A stretch of 64,000 bases of DNA from an uncultured Gemmatimonadales bacterium (GCA_963809895.1 CAWELD010000010.1:224001-288000); one strand, 5' to 3'. Shown: positions 10,183 to 57,751, numbered from the stretch's first letter. Program-made: numbers and translations. Notes: generated by a model from the sequence alone, not told the origin.

Positions 10183-10778
10183 GACCCGGCGCGCGTCTGG
10201 CCGGCGTTCCGGCCTTCGCACTCGGCCTCGTGGCCGCGCTGGTGGCCGAGCTCGCCGCGGGGCTGCTCCTCTTCGCCGCCGACGGGTTCCTGCAGGCGCT
10301 CACGCTGGTGCTGGCGGTGGGTCTGGGATCGTTGGGATTGGGGCTGTTGACGGCTCCGTCGGGGCCGTCGCTTCCGGAGATCGCCCGATCCCTTCGCAGG
10401 CGCTGGTTCCTGGTGCTCGCGGCCCTCGGCGTCGCCGGCGGGCTCTCGGTGGTCTGGTCTCTCGGCGCGGGCCTGCAGCAGACGCCACCGGCTCGTGGGT
10501 TGGCACTGGCGTTCCTGGAGGCCTTCCCCCTGTACGCCGTCGGCACCGTGCTGGGCGCCGTGCAGGCGCTTCACCCGGGCTCGCGGAGCGGCGCCATGGC
10601 GGCGCTGGGCGGGGCGTTGGGCGTGGTCCTGGAAGGGAGCGTGCTGCTGGTGCGCTTCGAGCCCGTCTCCATCTACCTCCTCTGCATCGTCCTCCTGTCG
10701 GGCTCCGCGCTCGTGCACGGTCGGGCTGTGTTGGCGCTGGTCGCACCACCCCCCCAGAACCCGGAGGGGCCGCCATGA
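10179..10778 (+). CDS. Multi-pass membrane protein (probable CTG start; first canonical start at 10230)
   Basis: About six hydrophobic segments. Stop overlaps the next ATG (ATGA, 10775-10778). Confidence 0.65.
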   Translation: MRPGARLAGVPAFALGLVAALVAELAAGLLLFAADGFLQALTLVLAVGLGSLGLGLLTAPSGPSLPEIARSLRRRWFLVLAALGVAGGLSVVWSLGAGLQQTPPARGLALAFLEAFPLYAVGTVLGAVQALHPGSRSGAMAALGGALGVVLEGSVLLVRFEPVSIYLLCIVLLSGSALVHGRAVLALVAPPPQNPEGPP

Positions 10779-11842
10779 AGTTGGCTCATCTCTCCGACCT
10801 CCACCTCGGCCACCGGGCCTTCGACCGTACCCAGGGTGGGCAGAATCTCCGGGAGCTCGACGTGGCGGCGGCCTTTCAGCGGGCGGTGCAGGAGGTGATC
10901 CTTCAGGCGCCCGACGTCATCGTGGTCGCCGGCGACGTCTTCGATCGTCCCGCGCCTCCGCCCGGCGCCCTGGTGACGCTGACCCGGGGCCTCGAACAGC
11001 TCCGTAGCGCGCTGCCCGAGACCCCGGTCCTGATGGCAGGCGGCGCCCGCGACGTTCCGCGGCGCTCGGGAGACCCGGGCGCGCTGGCGGCCATGGACGC
11101 CTTCCCCCATGTGGAGGCCGCCACCTCCACGGCGCGCAGCGTCCTGTTCCGGGAGCGGTCGCTCCACGTCCAGCTTCTGCCGCACCGGGCCGTGCTGCGC
11201 GGGCCGGTGCCGGTCATGGAGCCGGATCCCCGGGCACGCTGGAACGTCCTGGTGGCTCACGGCCGGTTGGCGGGACCGGGGGACCCCCCCGACCTGGGCC
11301 TGCCGCTGGAGCTGGACGGTTGGGACTACGTGGCGCTGGGCTCCCGCCACACGCATCAGGTGGTGCGGCCCGGAGTCGTCTACGCTGGCGCCCTGGAGCG
11401 GGTGGGGCCGACGCCCTGGAAGGAGGCCGGCGAGGAGAAGGGCTTCGTGACGGTGGATCTGGACACGGGCGGCGTCCGCTTCCATCCGGTGCGCGGGCGG
11501 CCCGTGGTGGCGCTGGCGCCCACCCGCGTGCCCGCCGGCGACGCCCGGGCGCTCCGGGAGCGGGTGGCCGAGGTGGTACGCGAGGTTCCCGGTGGCATCG
11601 ACGGCAAGATCGTCCGAATCCGCCTGCGTGGCCCGGCGCCGGCGGACCTGACCGCGCTCCAGGGCGCCTTTCTCACGGGCCTCGCGGCCCGCGCCCTCCA
11701 TCTGTCGGTGGAGGTCGAGGCGGAAGGCGGTGGACGCGGGCCGGCGCGCGAGCTTCCCGATCGGGTCGCGGAGCACCTCGCCGATGACGCGCCGCCGGCG
11801 GTGGGCGCCCTGGTGGACCGGGTCCTGCAGGCCGGCGCATGA
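10775..11842 (+). CDS. SbcD/Mre11-like metallophosphoesterase with degenerate motifs III and V
   Basis: HLSDLHLG, AGDVFD and VAHG are intact. GNHD is replaced by GGARD and GHxH by GSRH. YAGALER and EEKGFV match the SbcD C-terminal core. Confidence 0.85.
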   Translation: MKLAHLSDLHLGHRAFDRTQGGQNLRELDVAAAFQRAVQEVILQAPDVIVVAGDVFDRPAPPPGALVTLTRGLEQLRSALPETPVLMAGGARDVPRRSGDPGALAAMDAFPHVEAATSTARSVLFRERSLHVQLLPHRAVLRGPVPVMEPDPRARWNVLVAHGRLAGPGDPPDLGLPLELDGWDYVALGSRHTHQVVRPGVVYAGALERVGPTPWKEAGEEKGFVTVDLDTGGVRFHPVRGRPVVALAPTRVPAGDARALRERVAEVVREVPGGIDGKIVRIRLRGPAPADLTALQGAFLTGLAARALHLSVEVEAEGGGRGPARELPDRVAEHLADDAPPAVGALVDRVLQAGA

Positions 11843-13338
11843 GGATCGGGGCGCTCAGGACCCATTCCCTGCCGGGGGTCGGCGCGGCCGAGGTCGAGCT
11901 GCCCGGAGGGCTGGTGGCGGTGGTGGCCCCCGACGGGCGTATCCGACGCGCGCTCGCCCGCATACTGGAAGGCGAGGCTTCGGGCGCGGCCTCCGACGTG
12001 CTGCTCTTTCCTCGCGTACCGGATCCGGTGCTGGCGCGCCTTCCCGAGGGGCTGCTGCACCGGCTGCGGACTGGAAGCGGACTGGCCGACGCCGATCAGG
12101 TCCTGGAGGTGGCTGCGCGGGCGTTGGCGTGGGCGGCGGGCCTGGACCGGGTCGAGGCCGCGCGGGTGAGGCTGGCGCAGTTGAGGGGGAATCCCGAAGA
12201 GTCCGGCGGGCCCACGGCGGAAGCGCTTCTGGCGCGCATCCGTGAGCTCGAAGGGGCGCCGGCCGAGCTGCACGGTCTGGAAGAGGAGCTCCGGGAGCTC
12301 AGGGGCGACGACGTGGAGGTGTCGGGTGACCTGGAGCAGGCGACCATGGAATGGTTGCGCGAGCGCCAGGACGCCGAGACCCAGCTCCAGACCTATCGCG
12401 ATCGCGCCCGTGAGCTGCGGAGCCGCCTGGGGGAGCTCGCCGACGCCGGAGCCGACGCCGATTGCCCCATCTGCGGGCGCCCCCTCCGGGATCACCTGCC
12501 CAGGGTCAAGGAGACGTTGGAGGAGGAGTGGGAGGCCGTGGTCCAGGATGGAAGCTGGTGGCGACGCCGGCGGGAGCAACTGGATCTCAAGCCGGACCGT
12601 CTGCAGGAGCTCGAGCGCAAGGCGCTGCGCGTGCACGCGGCGACCGAAGAGCTCGGCGAGCGCGTGGACAGGCTGCGCGACCGGGTCCGGGAGCTGGACG
12701 ATCTCAGGGTGCGCCTGGCGTCGTTGGCTCCGGACGACGGCAGCGCCGATCCCAGAGGCATCGTGCCGCGCACCGTGTGGGAGGCGGCCGACCGGGCGCT
12801 GGCGGGCACCGCGCGTGAGCTGAAGGCCGAGGCCCGGGCTCGGCTCCTGGACCGCGCATCCGGATTCCTCGGACGAATCACCGCGGGGCGCGTCCTGGGC
12901 ATGGGATGGGCCCCGCCGGGGCATCTCACGCTGGAGGGGATGGACGCCCCCCTGTATCCTCCGTCGGAAGAGGAAGCGGCGGCGGCTACGGTCGCGGCGC
13001 GCCTGGCGGCCGTGGAGCTCGTCTGGGAAGACGCCGGAGCCAAAGGCGCCGGGCTGCTCCTGGGCGACGGCTTCGATCGCCTGGACGAAGCGGCCCGTGT
13101 GCGAGCCGTGGACCTCCTGCGCCAACGTGCCCGCCGCGGCTTCGCGCAGATCGTCGTCGTGACGCGCGGCGAGGTGGTAGACCTCTTTCCAGAGGGCTTC
13201 GACGCAGTGGTGGAGCTCCGGGGTGACGGGTCCGGCGCCGCCTCGGTCCCGGCGGGCACGGGTGTGCTGAGGCTGGTCCCCACTCAGGCCGGTCCCTCGT
13301 CCGGTAGCGCCGCCACGGCCGTGACCTCGAGCAGGTAG
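11839..13338 (+). CDS. SbcC/Rad50-like coiled-coil protein with zinc hook and degenerate ATPase motifs
   Basis: Central CPICG between coiled coils. Head-domain remnants GLVAVVAPDG, PSEEE..A..AARLA, LLLGDGFDRLDE, QIVVVTR. ATGA-coupled to the SbcD-like gene. Confidence 0.8.
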   Translation: MRIGALRTHSLPGVGAAEVELPGGLVAVVAPDGRIRRALARILEGEASGAASDVLLFPRVPDPVLARLPEGLLHRLRTGSGLADADQVLEVAARALAWAAGLDRVEAARVRLAQLRGNPEESGGPTAEALLARIRELEGAPAELHGLEEELRELRGDDVEVSGDLEQATMEWLRERQDAETQLQTYRDRARELRSRLGELADAGADADCPICGRPLRDHLPRVKETLEEEWEAVVQDGSWWRRRREQLDLKPDRLQELERKALRVHAATEELGERVDRLRDRVRELDDLRVRLASLAPDDGSADPRGIVPRTVWEAADRALAGTARELKAEARARLLDRASGFLGRITAGRVLGMGWAPPGHLTLEGMDAPLYPPSEEEAAAATVAARLAAVELVWEDAGAKGAGLLLGDGFDRLDEAARVRAVDLLRQRARRGFAQIVVVTRGEVVDLFPEGFDAVVELRGDGSGAASVPAGTGVLRLVPTQAGPSSGSAATAVTSSR

Positions 13339-53042: not shown

Positions 53043-53861
53043 TCACCCTGCGAGGAACTCCAGCAGTGCGTCAAGCGATTCCTGCGGCCGCTCGTCCACG
53101 GGAAGGTGGCCACATCGGTCCAGGATCACCAGTTGCGCGTTCGGGATCTCGCGGCTGAGGCGCTCCCCGACCCAGAGCGGGACGACGGGATCGTCGCGGC
53201 CCCAGAGACACAGTGTAGGCACCTCGATCCCACCGTAGCGAGCCATCAACGCGGGAAGCTCGGGGGGCACGATGTGGGCCGCGCAGGTCACCAGGGCGGC
53301 CTGGGTGTCGGGGTCGGTGAGCGGATCGGCGAAGGTCGCGACGCGCTCCGGCGTGACGACCTGGTCCTGCACCACGACGTCACGCATGACCTTCGCCACC
53401 AGCCAGCGTTTCGGTGCCAGTCGCAGGACCATGCGGCTGAAGGTCGGGTGGTCCGCAAAACGCACGAAAGGCGGCGCTGCCTGGGGGTACGCGGCTCCGG
53501 CCACGCTCACCAGTCGAGCCAGGCGCCCCTCGTCGTCGTCCTGGAGCCGCACCGCCGCTGCCAGGGCCACTCCTCCGCCCAGCGAGTGCCCGATGAGCGT
53601 GGCGTCACGCAGATCCAGCTCCCGGACCAGGTCACCGACGGCGCCCCCGAGGCTCAGAGGATCGTAGGCACCGTCACGGGGCTTGGGGGCGGCGCCGAAA
53701 CCGGTCAGATCCACGTTCACCACCCGGTAGCGGGCGCGGAGGGGCGCGAGCCAGGGCGCCCACACGGCCCCATGGGCGCCGTAGCCGTGGATGAGGACCA
53801 AGGGCTCGCCCGTTCCCTCGTCGGTCCAGGCCAGGGGGATCGCCGCCCGCCCCTGCCTCAT
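53043..53861 (-). CDS. Alpha/beta hydrolase
   Basis: LIHGYG, DLTGFG, GHSLGG, WGRDD, CGH. Confidence 0.9.
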   Translation of the reverse strand: MRQGRAAIPLAWTDEGTGEPLVLIHGYGAHGAVWAPWLAPLRARYRVVNVDLTGFGAAPKPRDGAYDPLSLGGAVGDLVRELDLRDATLIGHSLGGGVALAAAVRLQDDDEGRLARLVSVAGAAYPQAAPPFVRFADHPTFSRMVLRLAPKRWLVAKVMRDVVVQDQVVTPERVATFADPLTDPDTQAALVTCAAHIVPPELPALMARYGGIEVPTLCLWGRDDPVVPLWVGERLSREIPNAQLVILDRCGHLPVDERPQESLDALLEFLAG

Positions 53862-56500
53862 GGCGCCTCCAGCTCCAGGCGGTGCGCGCCGCGGGCCTCG
53901 GCCTCGCGGGCGAGGTCGTCGTGGCAGGTGAAGAGGAAGACCTGGCGGGTGTCCGCCGCAGTGGCGAGCAGGTCCAGCCCGCGGCCCCGCCGCCTGGCGT
54001 CCCAGTTGACGAAGACCTCGTCCAGGAACAGCGGGAGCCGCTCGCCCGAGCGGTCCAGCTCGTCGAGAAGGGCGAGGCGCAACGCCAGGTAGACCTGTTC
54101 GCGCGTGCCGGTGGAGAGCGGGGGGCCCACCGGCCGGGGCTCGGCGAGGGCGGGGCCGCGGACCATGAAGGTGCGTCCGTCCTCGCCGCCGAGCAGGAGT
54201 CGATCGTAGCGCCCCCCGGTGAGGATGGAGAGAAAGCGCCCGGCACGCCGGAGGGCGCCGGGTTGATGCTCCTCGCGGATCCACCGGTCTGCATCGCGAA
54301 CCACCCGGGCCATGATGTAGAGGCGGTCCCGGCGGCGAGCCAGGTGGGCGCATTCCTCTTCCAGGCTCTCGATCTCCCCGTCGAGATCGTCCAGGGTGTC
54401 CCGGTCGGCGAGGTGCGCTACCTCGCCCCCGAGGCCCTCCACCCTCCTGGCGAGCTCCTCGATCTCCTCGGTCAGGCCCTTCTCCCGTGCGGCGAGTCGG
54501 GCCAGCTGCTCGTCGTCGGGGAGGGCCTCCTCGCTCCACGAGGCCGGATCCGGCGTGAGCTCGGCCAGCTCGGCCTGCGCTTCGTGCGCCCGTCGAAGCG
54601 CGTCCAGGCGCTCCCTCGCCTCACGGGCCCCGGCGATGGGATCGCCCTCCGGATCGAAGGCCGCCAGGCGGTCCCGCAGGGTGTGCGCGGCCCGCTCGGT
54701 CTCCTCCACGTGAGCGCAGACGCGCCGCCTCTCCCGGGCGAGCCGTTCCAGCTCGCCCTCGGCGGCGCGGGCCGCCTCCATGCGTCGGGTGGCGGCACGC
54801 ACGGCGTGACGCGCGGCGTGCAGGGCCGCACCGGGATCGGCGACCGGGAGGTCGTCGAGGGGCAACTCGGCGACGAATGCAGCTATGTCGGCGCCCAGGC
54901 CCTCCACGGACTCTGCCAGCTGCCGCTTGCGCGCCCGACGTTCGCGGAGGTCCCTCAGGATCTCCTGGATGCGCTCGACGTCACCGGCGAGCTCGGGACC
55001 CACGGGCCGCCCCTCGACCAGGAGCGCGAGGTCTCCCAGGATCTCGCTGAGCTGGGCCCGCGCCCGCTCCGCGTCGCGCCGGGCTCGCTGGGCGTCCTCG
55101 TGCCTGGTTGCGCCCCGCCGACGAGAGCGCAGCCACCAGAGCAGGCCGGCAGCGGTCGCGGCCCCGGCCAGAAGGGCGGCTCCCAGGGCGAGCACCAGCA
55201 CCTGGCCGGCCGTGGCGCCGACCGCGACGCCCGCCAGGCCCAGCAGGGCGGCCCCCACCAGGGGTGTCCGCGGAAAGGGAGGCAGGGCGTCGGAGTGATC
55301 CTCGGCCTCGGCCTGTCGCTGGCGAGTCGCCGCGTCGGTCCACGCCCGCAACGTGTCCCGGAGCCGGGGCAGCGGGATTCGGAGCCAGGCCTCTTCGTCG
55401 GCGTCGGCCCCGCCGTCGAGTCGCGATCGAACCGTGTCGAGGCGGCGTCCGAGATCGCGGACCTCCTGATCCAGCTGCGCGATGCGCAGGCGATTCTGGT
55501 CGGCACTCGCCCAGTGTCCGGCCAACTGTTCCAGTCGGGCCTCGCCGGCGAGCAGGCGCCTGTCCGCCTCGGTGAAGGCGTCCAGCGCCGATCGCGGGGC
55601 GCTCTCGTCGCTGGCCAGCCGCGCCAGGTCGTCCTGGGCGTCACGATGATGGCCCTGGGCCTCGGCCAGCGCGCGCTCGGGATCGGGGGGAAGATCGTCG
55701 AGCGGCTCGGGATCCCCCGCTCGAGCCTCGAGGTCCCGCGCGCGCCGAAGTCGACGCCGTACCGGAAGCAGCCGGCGCGCCCGCTCGAGCTCCACCCGGC
55801 AGCGTTCACGCTCCTCTCGCCGCGCCTCCAACAACTCGCGGGCGCGCCTAAGCTCCGCCTGTGCGTCGCGCATGCGTCGGTCGGCCTCCCGCACGTCGCT
55901 CCGGCGGAAACGCAGCTCCCCGATGCGCTCCCGGAGGTCGCGGATGCGCTGGTGGCCACGTCGATTGGGACGCCACAGAGCACCGGCCTCCGCTTCCAGC
56001 TCGTCGGCGACCGTCCGGGCCGGACGGAGGTCCCGTGCCCCGAGGGCGCCCACGAGCCGATCCTGCACCGCGTCCCAGCCGTCGGCGTCCAGCGAGGCGA
56101 GCTCCGCGAGCCCCAGGGCGAACACCTGCCGAAAGACCGGGAGCGGCACATGGGCGGCAGCCGGCACCGTGTGGTTCCGGATCGGCTCCTCCACGCTGCC
56201 TCGCACCAGAGACCCGGTCGGCGACGACAGAAGGCGCCGATGGACCTCCAGGACCTGTCCCGTTTGCAGACGCAGGACGGCATCGCCCGCGGCGTCACCG
56301 CCGGCCCAGGGAGCCCATGGGTTGCGGTCCCGCGAGGACGGATAGAAGCCGTAGAGCAGCGCGGTCAGGAACTCGAAGAAGGAGCTCTTGCCGGCCTCGT
56401 TCTCGCCGTGGACGAGCACCCAGGACGGAAGCGGCGCATCTCCCGTGTCGACTTCCTGGAGACCCCCGAAGGCCTGGATCCGGATCCGCTCGAACCGCAT
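53858..56500 (-). CDS. YhaN-like AAA_27 / Rad50-like ATPase with two internal TM helices
   Basis: GENEAGKSS, long coiled coils, LSTGTREQVYLALR, FLDEVFVNWD, FTCH. Confidence 0.88.
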   Translation of the reverse strand: MRFERIRIQAFGGLQEVDTGDAPLPSWVLVHGENEAGKSSFFEFLTALLYGFYPSSRDRNPWAPWAGGDAAGDAVLRLQTGQVLEVHRRLLSSPTGSLVRGSVEEPIRNHTVPAAAHVPLPVFRQVFALGLAELASLDADGWDAVQDRLVGALGARDLRPARTVADELEAEAGALWRPNRRGHQRIRDLRERIGELRFRRSDVREADRRMRDAQAELRRARELLEARREERERCRVELERARRLLPVRRRLRRARDLEARAGDPEPLDDLPPDPERALAEAQGHHRDAQDDLARLASDESAPRSALDAFTEADRRLLAGEARLEQLAGHWASADQNRLRIAQLDQEVRDLGRRLDTVRSRLDGGADADEEAWLRIPLPRLRDTLRAWTDAATRQRQAEAEDHSDALPPFPRTPLVGAALLGLAGVAVGATAGQVLVLALGAALLAGAATAAGLLWWLRSRRRGATRHEDAQRARRDAERARAQLSEILGDLALLVEGRPVGPELAGDVERIQEILRDLRERRARKRQLAESVEGLGADIAAFVAELPLDDLPVADPGAALHAARHAVRAATRRMEAARAAEGELERLARERRRVCAHVEETERAAHTLRDRLAAFDPEGDPIAGAREARERLDALRRAHEAQAELAELTPDPASWSEEALPDDEQLARLAAREKGLTEEIEELARRVEGLGGEVAHLADRDTLDDLDGEIESLEEECAHLARRRDRLYIMARVVRDADRWIREEHQPGALRRAGRFLSILTGGRYDRLLLGGEDGRTFMVRGPALAEPRPVGPPLSTGTREQVYLALRLALLDELDRSGERLPLFLDEVFVNWDARRRGRGLDLLATAADTRQVFLFTCHDDLAREAEARGAHRLELEAP

Positions 56501-56506
56501 GGTCTC

Positions 56507-57751
56507 CTACCGGGCCCGCTCGGGATCCAGCATGCGCGCCAGGATCTCACCCTCGGCGTCGCCCAGAACCTCTCGCACGTAGTCCCGGGCATCGACATCG
56601 TCTCGCAACCCCGCGAGCTCCCGCTCCAGGCCCGCCGGAAGGGCGCCCTGGCCGTGGGCGAGCTCCCGCAGGCGCCGGAGCGCGACCCCCAGGACGTCTT
56701 CCCGGCCCTCGTGCATGTCGGCGTCCACCACCGCGTGCACGCGGTCGGCGCGGACCTCCACGTCCAGGGCGCCGATGGCCTCGCGCAGCTCGCGGGCCAG
56801 CGCCGGCCGCTCGTCGTCCGAGGCGAGCTCTCGCCAGAGGGGCGTGCCGCCGGCGAGGGTCACGCGCACCATCCACTCGGCGTCGGGCGCCGGATCGGCC
56901 GCGCGCGCAGCGCGCCAGCGTCGGGTCACCGCACCCACCACCGCGTCCAGGGTGGCGGCGTCGCCGAGATCGGATACCTCGATAGACTCCCAGCGCACCG
57001 GTGCGAACGCTCGGAACTCCACCTCGGCCGCTCCGTCGACCCCCACGTCGACGAGCAGGCCACCGCGCGGCCCCGACTCGGCGTGGGTGCGACCCTGCAG
57101 GTTTCCAGGGTAGTGGATCGCCGGAAGCCCGGAGAGCGCCTGCCGGGTGTGCACGTGCCCGAGCGCCCAGTAGTGGTACCCGGCCCGACGCAGGGTCTCC
57201 ACCTCGGTCGGAGCGTAGGGCTCATGGGCCTCTTCGTCGCGGGACCCGACCACCTGAGCGTGCAGGACCGCGATCTCGGGCCGGTGTCCCTCCGGACGGG
57301 GAAAGCGGGCCGCCAGGTCACGTGTCTCACGGGGTCCGGTGTGCCCCGCAGCCGTCACGTGCCCCACCACCGTTCCGTCGCGGTCCCGGATGGCCACGCG
57401 GCGCGGCGTGGCGTCGGGAGCCACGGTCACGTTGCTCGGCCAGTGCAGGGACGCGGCGCGCGCGCCGTCACGACCCGGGTCGTGGTTGCCCGTAGCGTAG
57501 ACCACGGGGATGCTCGCGGCCTCGAGGCGGCCGAGCTCGTCCAGGAGGAAACGCTCGGTCTCGAAGGAGAGCGTGGCGCCGTCGAAGAGATCGCCGGCAA
57601 TGACCACGCACAGGACCTCCTCCGCCAGCGCGGCGTCCACGGCGCGCGCGAAGGCTCGGCGTGAGGCGTCACGCAGGCGCCGGCGGAGGTCCGGTGAGCG
57701 CCCTGCGAACGGCGTGTCCAGGTGAACGTCGGCAAGATGTAGGATGCGCAT
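56507..57751 (-). CDS. YhaO/Mre11-like DNA repair exonuclease
   Basis: ADVHLD, GDLFD, GNHD, LHA, ALGHVH, YPGNLQGR, all intact. Confidence 0.9.
   Translation of the reverse strand: MRILHLADVHLDTPFAGRSPDLRRRLRDASRRAFARAVDAALAEEVLCVVIAGDLFDGATLSFETERFLLDELGRLEAASIPVVYATGNHDPGRDGARAASLHWPSNVTVAPDATPRRVAIRDRDGTVVGHVTAAGHTGPRETRDLAARFPRPEGHRPEIAVLHAQVVGSRDEEAHEPYAPTEVETLRRAGYHYWALGHVHTRQALSGLPAIHYPGNLQGRTHAESGPRGGLLVDVGVDGAAEVEFRAFAPVRWESIEVSDLGDAATLDAVVGAVTRRWRAARAADPAPDAEWMVRVTLAGGTPLWRELASDDERPALARELREAIGALDVEVRADRVHAVVDADMHEGREDVLGVALRRLRELAHGQGALPAGLERELAGLRDDVDARDYVREVLGDAEGEILARMLDPERAR

Follow-up and report, generated by a model that had tools for sequence, protein, structure and literature searches.

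The sbcC-like gene found in the analyzed window, a stretch of 64,000 nucleotides from the genome of an uncultured bacterium, very probably encodes a non-ATPase that is maintained by selection. Both this gene and the sbcD-like gene directly upstream of it are under purifying selection, and the constraint on SbcC has moved from the heads to the hook arm, resulting in an inverted conservation. The pair may well represent a natural case in which both halves of the near-universal Mre11-Rad50 complex have become pseudo-enzymes and the job of the hook and the adjacent coil has been kept alone. The features are the following (coordinates refer to the window, unless a locus is named):

10775-11842, plus strand: SbcD/Mre11-like gene (355 aa) with nuclease and cap domains and a C-terminal helix-loop-helix; active site eroded
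11042-11053, plus strand: SbcD motif III, reading GARD where GNHD is canonical; the Asn metal ligand and the catalytic His are gone
11339-11350, plus strand: SbcD motif V, reading GSRH where GHxH is canonical; the second His is retained, the first is not
11839-11842, plus strand: ATGA, in which the stop of sbcD overlaps the start of sbcC and couples the two genes (sequence)
11839-13338, plus strand: SbcC/Rad50-like gene (499 aa) with a shrunken head, a half-length coiled coil and a zinc hook
11926-11952, plus strand: Walker A position, APDGRIRRA aligned to GPNGAGKST (profile alignment)
12316-12594, plus strand: hook-proximal antiparallel coiled coil (residues 160-252), the best-conserved part (invariant residues, identities)
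12463-12474, plus strand: zinc hook CPIC with C209 and C212 (sequence; zinc binding predicted)
12955-12975, plus strand: ABC signature position, YPPSEEE, lacking SGG (profile and MAFFT alignments)
13054-13086, plus strand: Walker B/D-loop position, LLLGDGFDRLD aligned to LILDEVFGSLD (profile-profile alignment)
13153-13167, plus strand: H-loop position, VVVTR aligned to LITH (profile-profile alignment)
53858-57751, minus strand: intact YhaO/YhaN (SbcF/SbcE-like) nuclease-ATPase pair with canonical motifs; AAA_27 and Metallophos matches above cut-off
L065:2140-3729, minus strand in L065, also in L066 and L067: short-coil SbcC of genus g32, family f3

Sequence and predicted structure of the SbcC-like and SbcD-like proteins

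The plus-strand translation of positions 11839-13338 is a single unbroken ORF of 499 aa, which contains every sequence string quoted in the preliminary description of this gene. A long ORF on the minus strand (11380-13125) was taken to be an antisense shadow; the homologs favor the plus strand. The unconserved C-terminal tail (13284-13338) overlaps by 55 bases with a convergently oriented gene of the RidA family. A contig of 259 nt from one metatranscriptome library covers positions 12918-13175 with 2 differences and may derive from carried-over DNA.

In a profile-profile alignment to 13 canonical SbcC sequences, namely 12 orthologs and one second copy (probability 100%, E 3e-45), the hook, Walker B, D-loop, and H-loop could each be placed in a definite register. 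For Walker A, residues 1-46 were profile-aligned to canonical orthologs with a probability of 59%. The motif G-x4-GK[ST] is found here in all 12 canonical sequences, but in none of 65 examined loci of the host family, which were selected non-randomly from the best matches and from arm-only matches. A true Walker B motif (hhhDE) is retained in a single one of these loci (G020) and the H-loop His in none, five of them lacking the C-terminal end. The register of the signature is ambiguous by two residues, as the profile alignment places YPPSE and MAFFT places PSEEE on ISGGE. SGG is missing in either register, and 10 regular-expression matches to SGG among the host-family sequences lie outside the signature position. 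Concerning the Q-loop, T78-G79-S80 was matched to TGQ by eye only, in a register which the profile alignment did not support and in which the Gln would be gone; G79 is present in 62 of the 65 loci. The CxxC hook is found in 64 of them. Since the same erosion occurs in all 65 loci, it is due neither to chance nor to an assembly error. A head without the P-loop GK[ST], the Walker B DE, the signature, and the switch His cannot run the Rad50 ATP cycle.

The preliminary description, made from the window alone, had proposed an uninterrupted but short ORF in which Walker A, signature, Walker B, and H-loop are all eroded and the zinc hook and coils are kept. This is borne out by the translation and by the alignments to canonical SbcC, with an intact CxxC and a coil of about half the normal length. 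The pairing of PSEEE with LSGGE holds with regard to the absence of SGG, and its exact register is ambiguous.

Family scans of the SbcC-like ORF recognized the hook and coil alone, and every match, such as Pfam Rad50_zn_hook with E 0.002, was below the cut-off. Queried with the arm, the ESM Atlas returned one Rad50_zn_hook cluster besides clusters without a name. The AlphaFold2 model, based on an alignment of 86 sequences, reached a mean pLDDT of 90.4 and predicts a split ABC-type head fold with an antiparallel coiled coil. Its best Foldseek matches are SMC/Rad50 heads, the closest structural match being the Rad50 head of P. furiosus (3qkt; Z 18.4, rmsd 4.3 Å over 265 residues), and the expectation of a Rad50-like fold was thus confirmed at the level of prediction. 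Compared to canonical SbcC of about 810 aa, the N-terminal head is partly deleted. Linkers of low model confidence and variable length at residues 120-122 and 301-304 part the arm from the head. The prediction of a homodimer of residues 1-484 with zinc scored 0.17, compared to a mark of 0.42, and speaks neither for nor against a dimer. Judged by its sequence and modeled structure, the ORF is an SbcC by descent and fold, and by its catalytic features it falls outside the enzyme family.

The SbcD-like protein matches TIGR00619 with E 6e-12, which is below the cut-off. Its AlphaFold2 model (pLDDT 90.5) predicts a phosphoesterase domain, a cap domain, and a C-terminal helix-loop-helix, and the best Foldseek matches are Mre11/SbcD structures (E 1e-16). 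An (A/G)TGA junction of sbcD and sbcC is likewise found in most loci of the same genus and in several canonical loci. The DxH and GD motifs are retained, but the complete di-metal site (DxH, GD, GNH, H, HxH) is absent, and by its catalytic features SbcD likewise falls outside its enzyme family. In motif III, all 11 canonical SbcD orthologs carry Asn-His, whereas neither Asn nor His occurs in any of 58 host-family sequences, 57 of which have an Arg. In LpxH, an Arg is found at the position of the motif III His. The first His of motif V is present in 6 and the second in 54 of the 58 sequences, and the His of motif IV in 24. The residues D8, H10, D54, and H192, which we take from Mre11 structures to be one of the two metal sites of SbcD, are retained together in 54 of the 58 and are canonical in 11/11 outgroup orthologs. 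In the SbcD of three loci of genus g50 (L087-L089) and of L052 (G025), the remaining metal ligands are gone as well and the frame is open.

An ORF for a membrane protein of 182 aa (window 10230-10778, plus strand) adjoins sbcD and has no family match. In G191, the same slot is occupied by a membrane segment fused to a short-chain dehydrogenase-like domain, as assigned by eye.

Orthology, distribution, and selection

Close homologs of the SbcC-like protein carry the source labels Longimicrobiales or Gemmatimonadota, and the host family most likely belongs to the Longimicrobiales. For the survey, 221 genomes of the order were used, with 106 from the host family and 114 from two sister families (54 and 60). 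A full-length canonical SbcC ortholog of about 810 aa was found in at least 76 of the 114 sister-family genomes, a floor set by a stricter first look, and in 0/106 host-family genomes. The canonical form was also found in three families of other orders and is therefore ancestral. Neighboring genes common to the host locus are present in all 12 canonical sister-family loci examined, and the host-family loci examined share neighbors too, save one 3-kb stretch (G025). From gene order and sequence comparison, the degenerate pair is the in-place chromosomal ortholog of sbcCD and not a spare copy. The preliminary description had overlooked the erosion of SbcD and had not recognized the locus as that of the lineage's own sbcCD.

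The profile of the degenerate form matches 82 of the 106 host-family genomes (termed carriers in the following), and uninterrupted frames are found across dozens of genera. In 26 of the 65 loci, SbcD and SbcC are fused, and in several genera the arm and SbcD alone are still well recognizable. Among all cluster representatives, 127 matched with E-values of no more than 1e-30; a large part of these are about 440-570 or 700-930 aa long. Using the profile search, the pair was not found in 24/106 genomes, including all 12 of genus g6, and is therefore dispensable in some lineages. Four copies look broken, namely those of G022 (split by a stop), G021 (in two pieces), G205 (in-frame stop, no sbcD nearby), and G163 (frameshifted sbcD).

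Elsewhere in the class, a full-length match to the class-typical SbcC was found in 0/18 and 0/31 genomes searched of the families f4 and f7, so sbcC seems to be lost or replaced there, too. Extra or divergent SbcC/SbcD of canonical type, possibly mobile, were observed off the main locus in L068, L069, and L070 (G173, G108, and G115).

A further reduction was identified in genus g32 of the sister family f3, where SbcC is shortened to about 530 aa at the same locus. It retains Walker A, Walker B, and the hook, whereas the signature, Q-loop, and H-loop are eroded. The sbcD slot is empty, and no sbcD ortholog was seen in five genomes; G123 carries two short-coil copies of SbcC. A tree of arm and heads groups g32 with the host family (support 1.0), which would make it an ancestral intermediate. 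The arm-only tree and the neighbor-gene tree both place g32 among the canonical sequences, and the case is therefore read as an independent reduction. From the arm-only tree, in which six rows are absent and two f5 rows are mis-extracted, the unrooted split alone was used.

Codon models for 19 genes of the same genus gave omega values of 0.071 for the N-terminal head, 0.038 for the arm, and 0.062 for the C-terminal head, and 18 sbcD genes gave 0.024; these values, obtained from kin and thus non-independent sequences, are rough, since synonymous sites are near saturation (dN 0.07-0.18 and dS 0.9-1.5 in the closest pairs). Fixing omega at 1 worsens the fit by 527-899 lnL units. In the canonical form (12 genes), the arm is less constrained (0.105) than the heads (0.076 and 0.044). 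The same inversion is seen in the identities between genera, for which 24 host-family and 9 canonical genera were compared. The heads are 25% and 33% identical in the host family compared to 74% and 76% in the canonical form, whereas the arm reaches 57% compared to 41% (residues 140-206) and 62% compared to 51% (residues 165-250). As two neighboring genes give similar identities in both groups (59% vs. 56% and 48% vs. 56%), the groups are of similar depth.

Ten arm residues (W172, Q177, A179, R187, D237, G238, W240, W241, R244, and Q247) are invariant in 65/65 loci. Conserved residues are also located on outer heptad positions (R174, E175, Q177, E180, R187, D188; heptads assigned manually). 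The stem of the host family has a length of 0.54 substitutions per site (support 0.999). The preliminary description had favored repurposing over decay and had proposed an estimate of dN/dS among orthologs; with omega of SbcC at 0.04-0.07, i.e., purifying selection, and with orthologs across the host family that also lack the motifs, the repurposing is supported. The credit it gave to the hook has to be extended, because selection keeps the hook-proximal coil as well.

Proposed function and rival explanations

The retention of the genes and a hook arm that is more conserved than before suggest a non-enzymatic tether or scaffold. On balance, we incline to an ATP- and nuclease-independent scaffold that would be dimerized via the hook and would tether or hold DNA, a role proposed from comparative sequence data. 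In this mechanism, the lineage's own sbcCD would have turned into a double pseudo-enzyme at the base of the host family. Rad50 dimers are formed by one zinc bound between two CxxC motifs, and two SbcC arms could be joined in the same way. The conserved surface of Trp, Arg, and acidic residues (residues 160-252) would bind DNA or a partner, and the residual head would serve as a folded anchor for SbcD, either via the helix-loop-helix or by fusion. SbcD, with one metal site and the new Arg, may grip phosphate or the ends of DNA but not cut in the canonical way, and end processing was probably handed over to other nucleases, among which SbcE/SbcF is a candidate.

For Rad50 of S. acidocaldarius, the cited part of one study describes DNA binding by an isolated 230-aa fragment of hook and coil, with a KD of about 4 μM (PMC7334584). 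In the host family, the net charge of the arm core is −4.1 (−4.0 in the canonical form), and residues 236-252 alone are net basic. As the arm core is net acidic like that of canonical orthologs, its charge gives no pointer to DNA binding. A charge swap, in which an Arg-rich P-loop and an acidic signature would pair and lock the heads in the absence of ATP, was set aside on the basis of the distribution of R36 (45/65), E378 (36/65), and R443 (29/65). It is further weakened by the ambiguous signature register, but could still hold in genus g1.

Of the 106 host-family genomes, 69 encode a YhaN-type ATPase, compared to 0/54 and 2/60 (weak) in the sister families, and YhaO/YhaN are often located 35-60 kb from the degenerate sbcCD. 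SbcE of B. subtilis acts in break repair, and loss of sbcC aggravates the loss of SbcE, as given in the cited sections of PMC2811018. YhaN/YhaO (SbcE/SbcF) is therefore a plausible candidate for the catalytic substitute of SbcCD. An obligate partnership was rejected, as 23 of the 82 carriers have no YhaN match and 10 genomes with YhaN lack the pair. An unrelated, intact SbcCD of about 1,050 aa with a CxxC hook, which was probably acquired later, is present in 32/106 host-family genomes and 26/82 carriers, and 26 further host-family genomes show weak matches to it. It was observed mostly in the genera g36, g44, g61, and g6 (L107-L111). As 20 of the 82 carriers lack YhaN and also show no strong match to this unrelated gene, the explanation by substitutes is incomplete. 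A search for another SbcC in the source genome, as suggested by the preliminary description, found none. The remaining ATPase matches are of SMC, RecF, and RecN size, as assigned by length and best family match, and YhaN of this genome lacks CxxC.

It is unlikely, but compatible with part of the data, that SbcD is still an enzyme, i.e., a single-metal, Arg-assisted phosphoesterase or nuclease without ATP gating, for which the SbcC remnant would serve as a dimerizing carrier. The joint retention of the four ligands of one site in 54/58 sequences, the Arg fixed in 57/58, and the lowest omega of all regions are in line with this. However, the motif III Asn is missing in 58/58, three g50 genomes and G025 keep the gene despite the loss of the remaining site, and mutants of His84/85 in E. 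coli SbcD and P. furiosus Mre11 are nuclease-dead according to the cited parts of PMC6265447 and PMC3526295. Distinctly unlikely is a function outside DNA repair, in which the hook arm would dock to an unknown protein by analogy to the coils of Lamassu LmuB with LmuA and LmuC. Many of the fixed surface residues date to the stem of the host family, and Lamassu itself arose from SbcCD and uses head-distal coils to serve partners, as described in the cited part of PMC12663957. The fixed chromosomal site with housekeeping neighbors and no effector seen adjoining, the weak, coil-level PADLOC matches to LmuB, and the presence of SbcD including its cap domain speak against such a docking.

A slow decay after takeover by SbcE/SbcF or a foreign SbcCD, with frames surviving by chance or weak constraint, would explain the fast divergence of the heads, the 24/106 genomes without the pair, and the four broken-looking copies. 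It is highly improbable and largely refuted by omega values far below 1, heads included, by an arm conserved beyond that of working orthologs with its ten invariant residues, and by intact frames across dozens of genera. The preliminary description had also considered a hook-mediated inhibitor, which would act on active SbcC in a dominant-negative manner. The 26/82 carriers which also hold the unrelated SbcCD with its CxxC hook would offer a target, but 56/82 have no strong match to it. Since there is no other SbcC in the source genome and its YhaN is without CxxC, this part of the preliminary description is hardly credible, whereas its reading as a repurposed protein stands.

Comparison with known systems

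Working complexes entangle the roles of hook and coil with ATP-driven changes, and the host lineage separates them naturally. Roles of the Rad50 hook and distal coil beyond the relay of the ATP cycle, such as DNA binding, bridging, and docking, are treated as an open question in the cited part of PMC7752040. If the scaffold function holds true, hook and adjacent coil have a task that needs neither ATP nor nuclease activity (DNA tethering, holding of ends, or docking of partners) and is worth keeping alone, and the same gene was reduced a second time, independently, in a sister lineage. The complex is small (about 480 + 355 aa, or 700-890 aa as a fusion), its catalysis is removed and the constraint on its arm is stronger. 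The canonical orthologs at the same locus can serve as controls and the conserved arm residues as a ready list for mutations. Going by the eroded motifs, the label "SbcCD ATPase subunit" in host-family genomes probably denotes no active ATPase. The open-access searches gave no prior description of an eroded SbcCD pair, and a phylogenomic table could mention one.

The degenerate pair shares the locus, gene order, translational coupling, folds, and zinc hook with the canonical SbcCD of the sister families, and the arms are 39% identical. It differs by the lack of ATPase motifs, the partial deletion of the N-terminal head, the eroded SbcD motifs III and V, a distance from hook to C-terminal head of 141 residues compared to 273, and frequent fusion. 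Fusions of Mre11 and Rad50 in the same order, like Mimivirus R555, are sporadic, and R555 retains Walker A, Walker B, and the D-loop; two of the fusions listed lack one P-loop segment, the nearest printed hint to an incomplete head in the cited part of PMC3175470.

SbcE/SbcF of B. subtilis likewise consist of an SbcC-like ATPase adjoining an SbcD-like nuclease and are active in break repair, but have active motifs and no CxxC according to the cited sections of PMC2811018. In the source genome, the SbcE/SbcF-like pair is separate and intact, 40 kb from the degenerate sbcCD, and the SbcC-like ORF, which does contain CxxC, is thus not YhaN, a type marked by a hydrophobic central domain and the lack of CxxC.

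Lamassu LmuB/LmuC also go back to SbcCD, from which they diverged as the coil became shorter and the motifs drifted, and the head-distal coil is a functional surface; in contrast, Lamassu is a defense system with effectors whose Walker B motifs are only diversified, as far as the cited part of PMC12663957 describes it. In the degenerate pair, no ATP motif is left, SbcD is retained in full, and the genes occupy a fixed site on the chromosome. No LmuA/LmuC defense operon was found, and matches to LmuB were weak and confined to the coil, with none for SbcD.

Finally, a lineage-specific remodeling of an SMC-family protein in place, also detected by genomics, is the hinge-less SMC of marine Actinobacteria. 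As given in the cited part of PMC12153180, it is the mirror case, in which the ATPase head is retained and the dimerization domain is gone.
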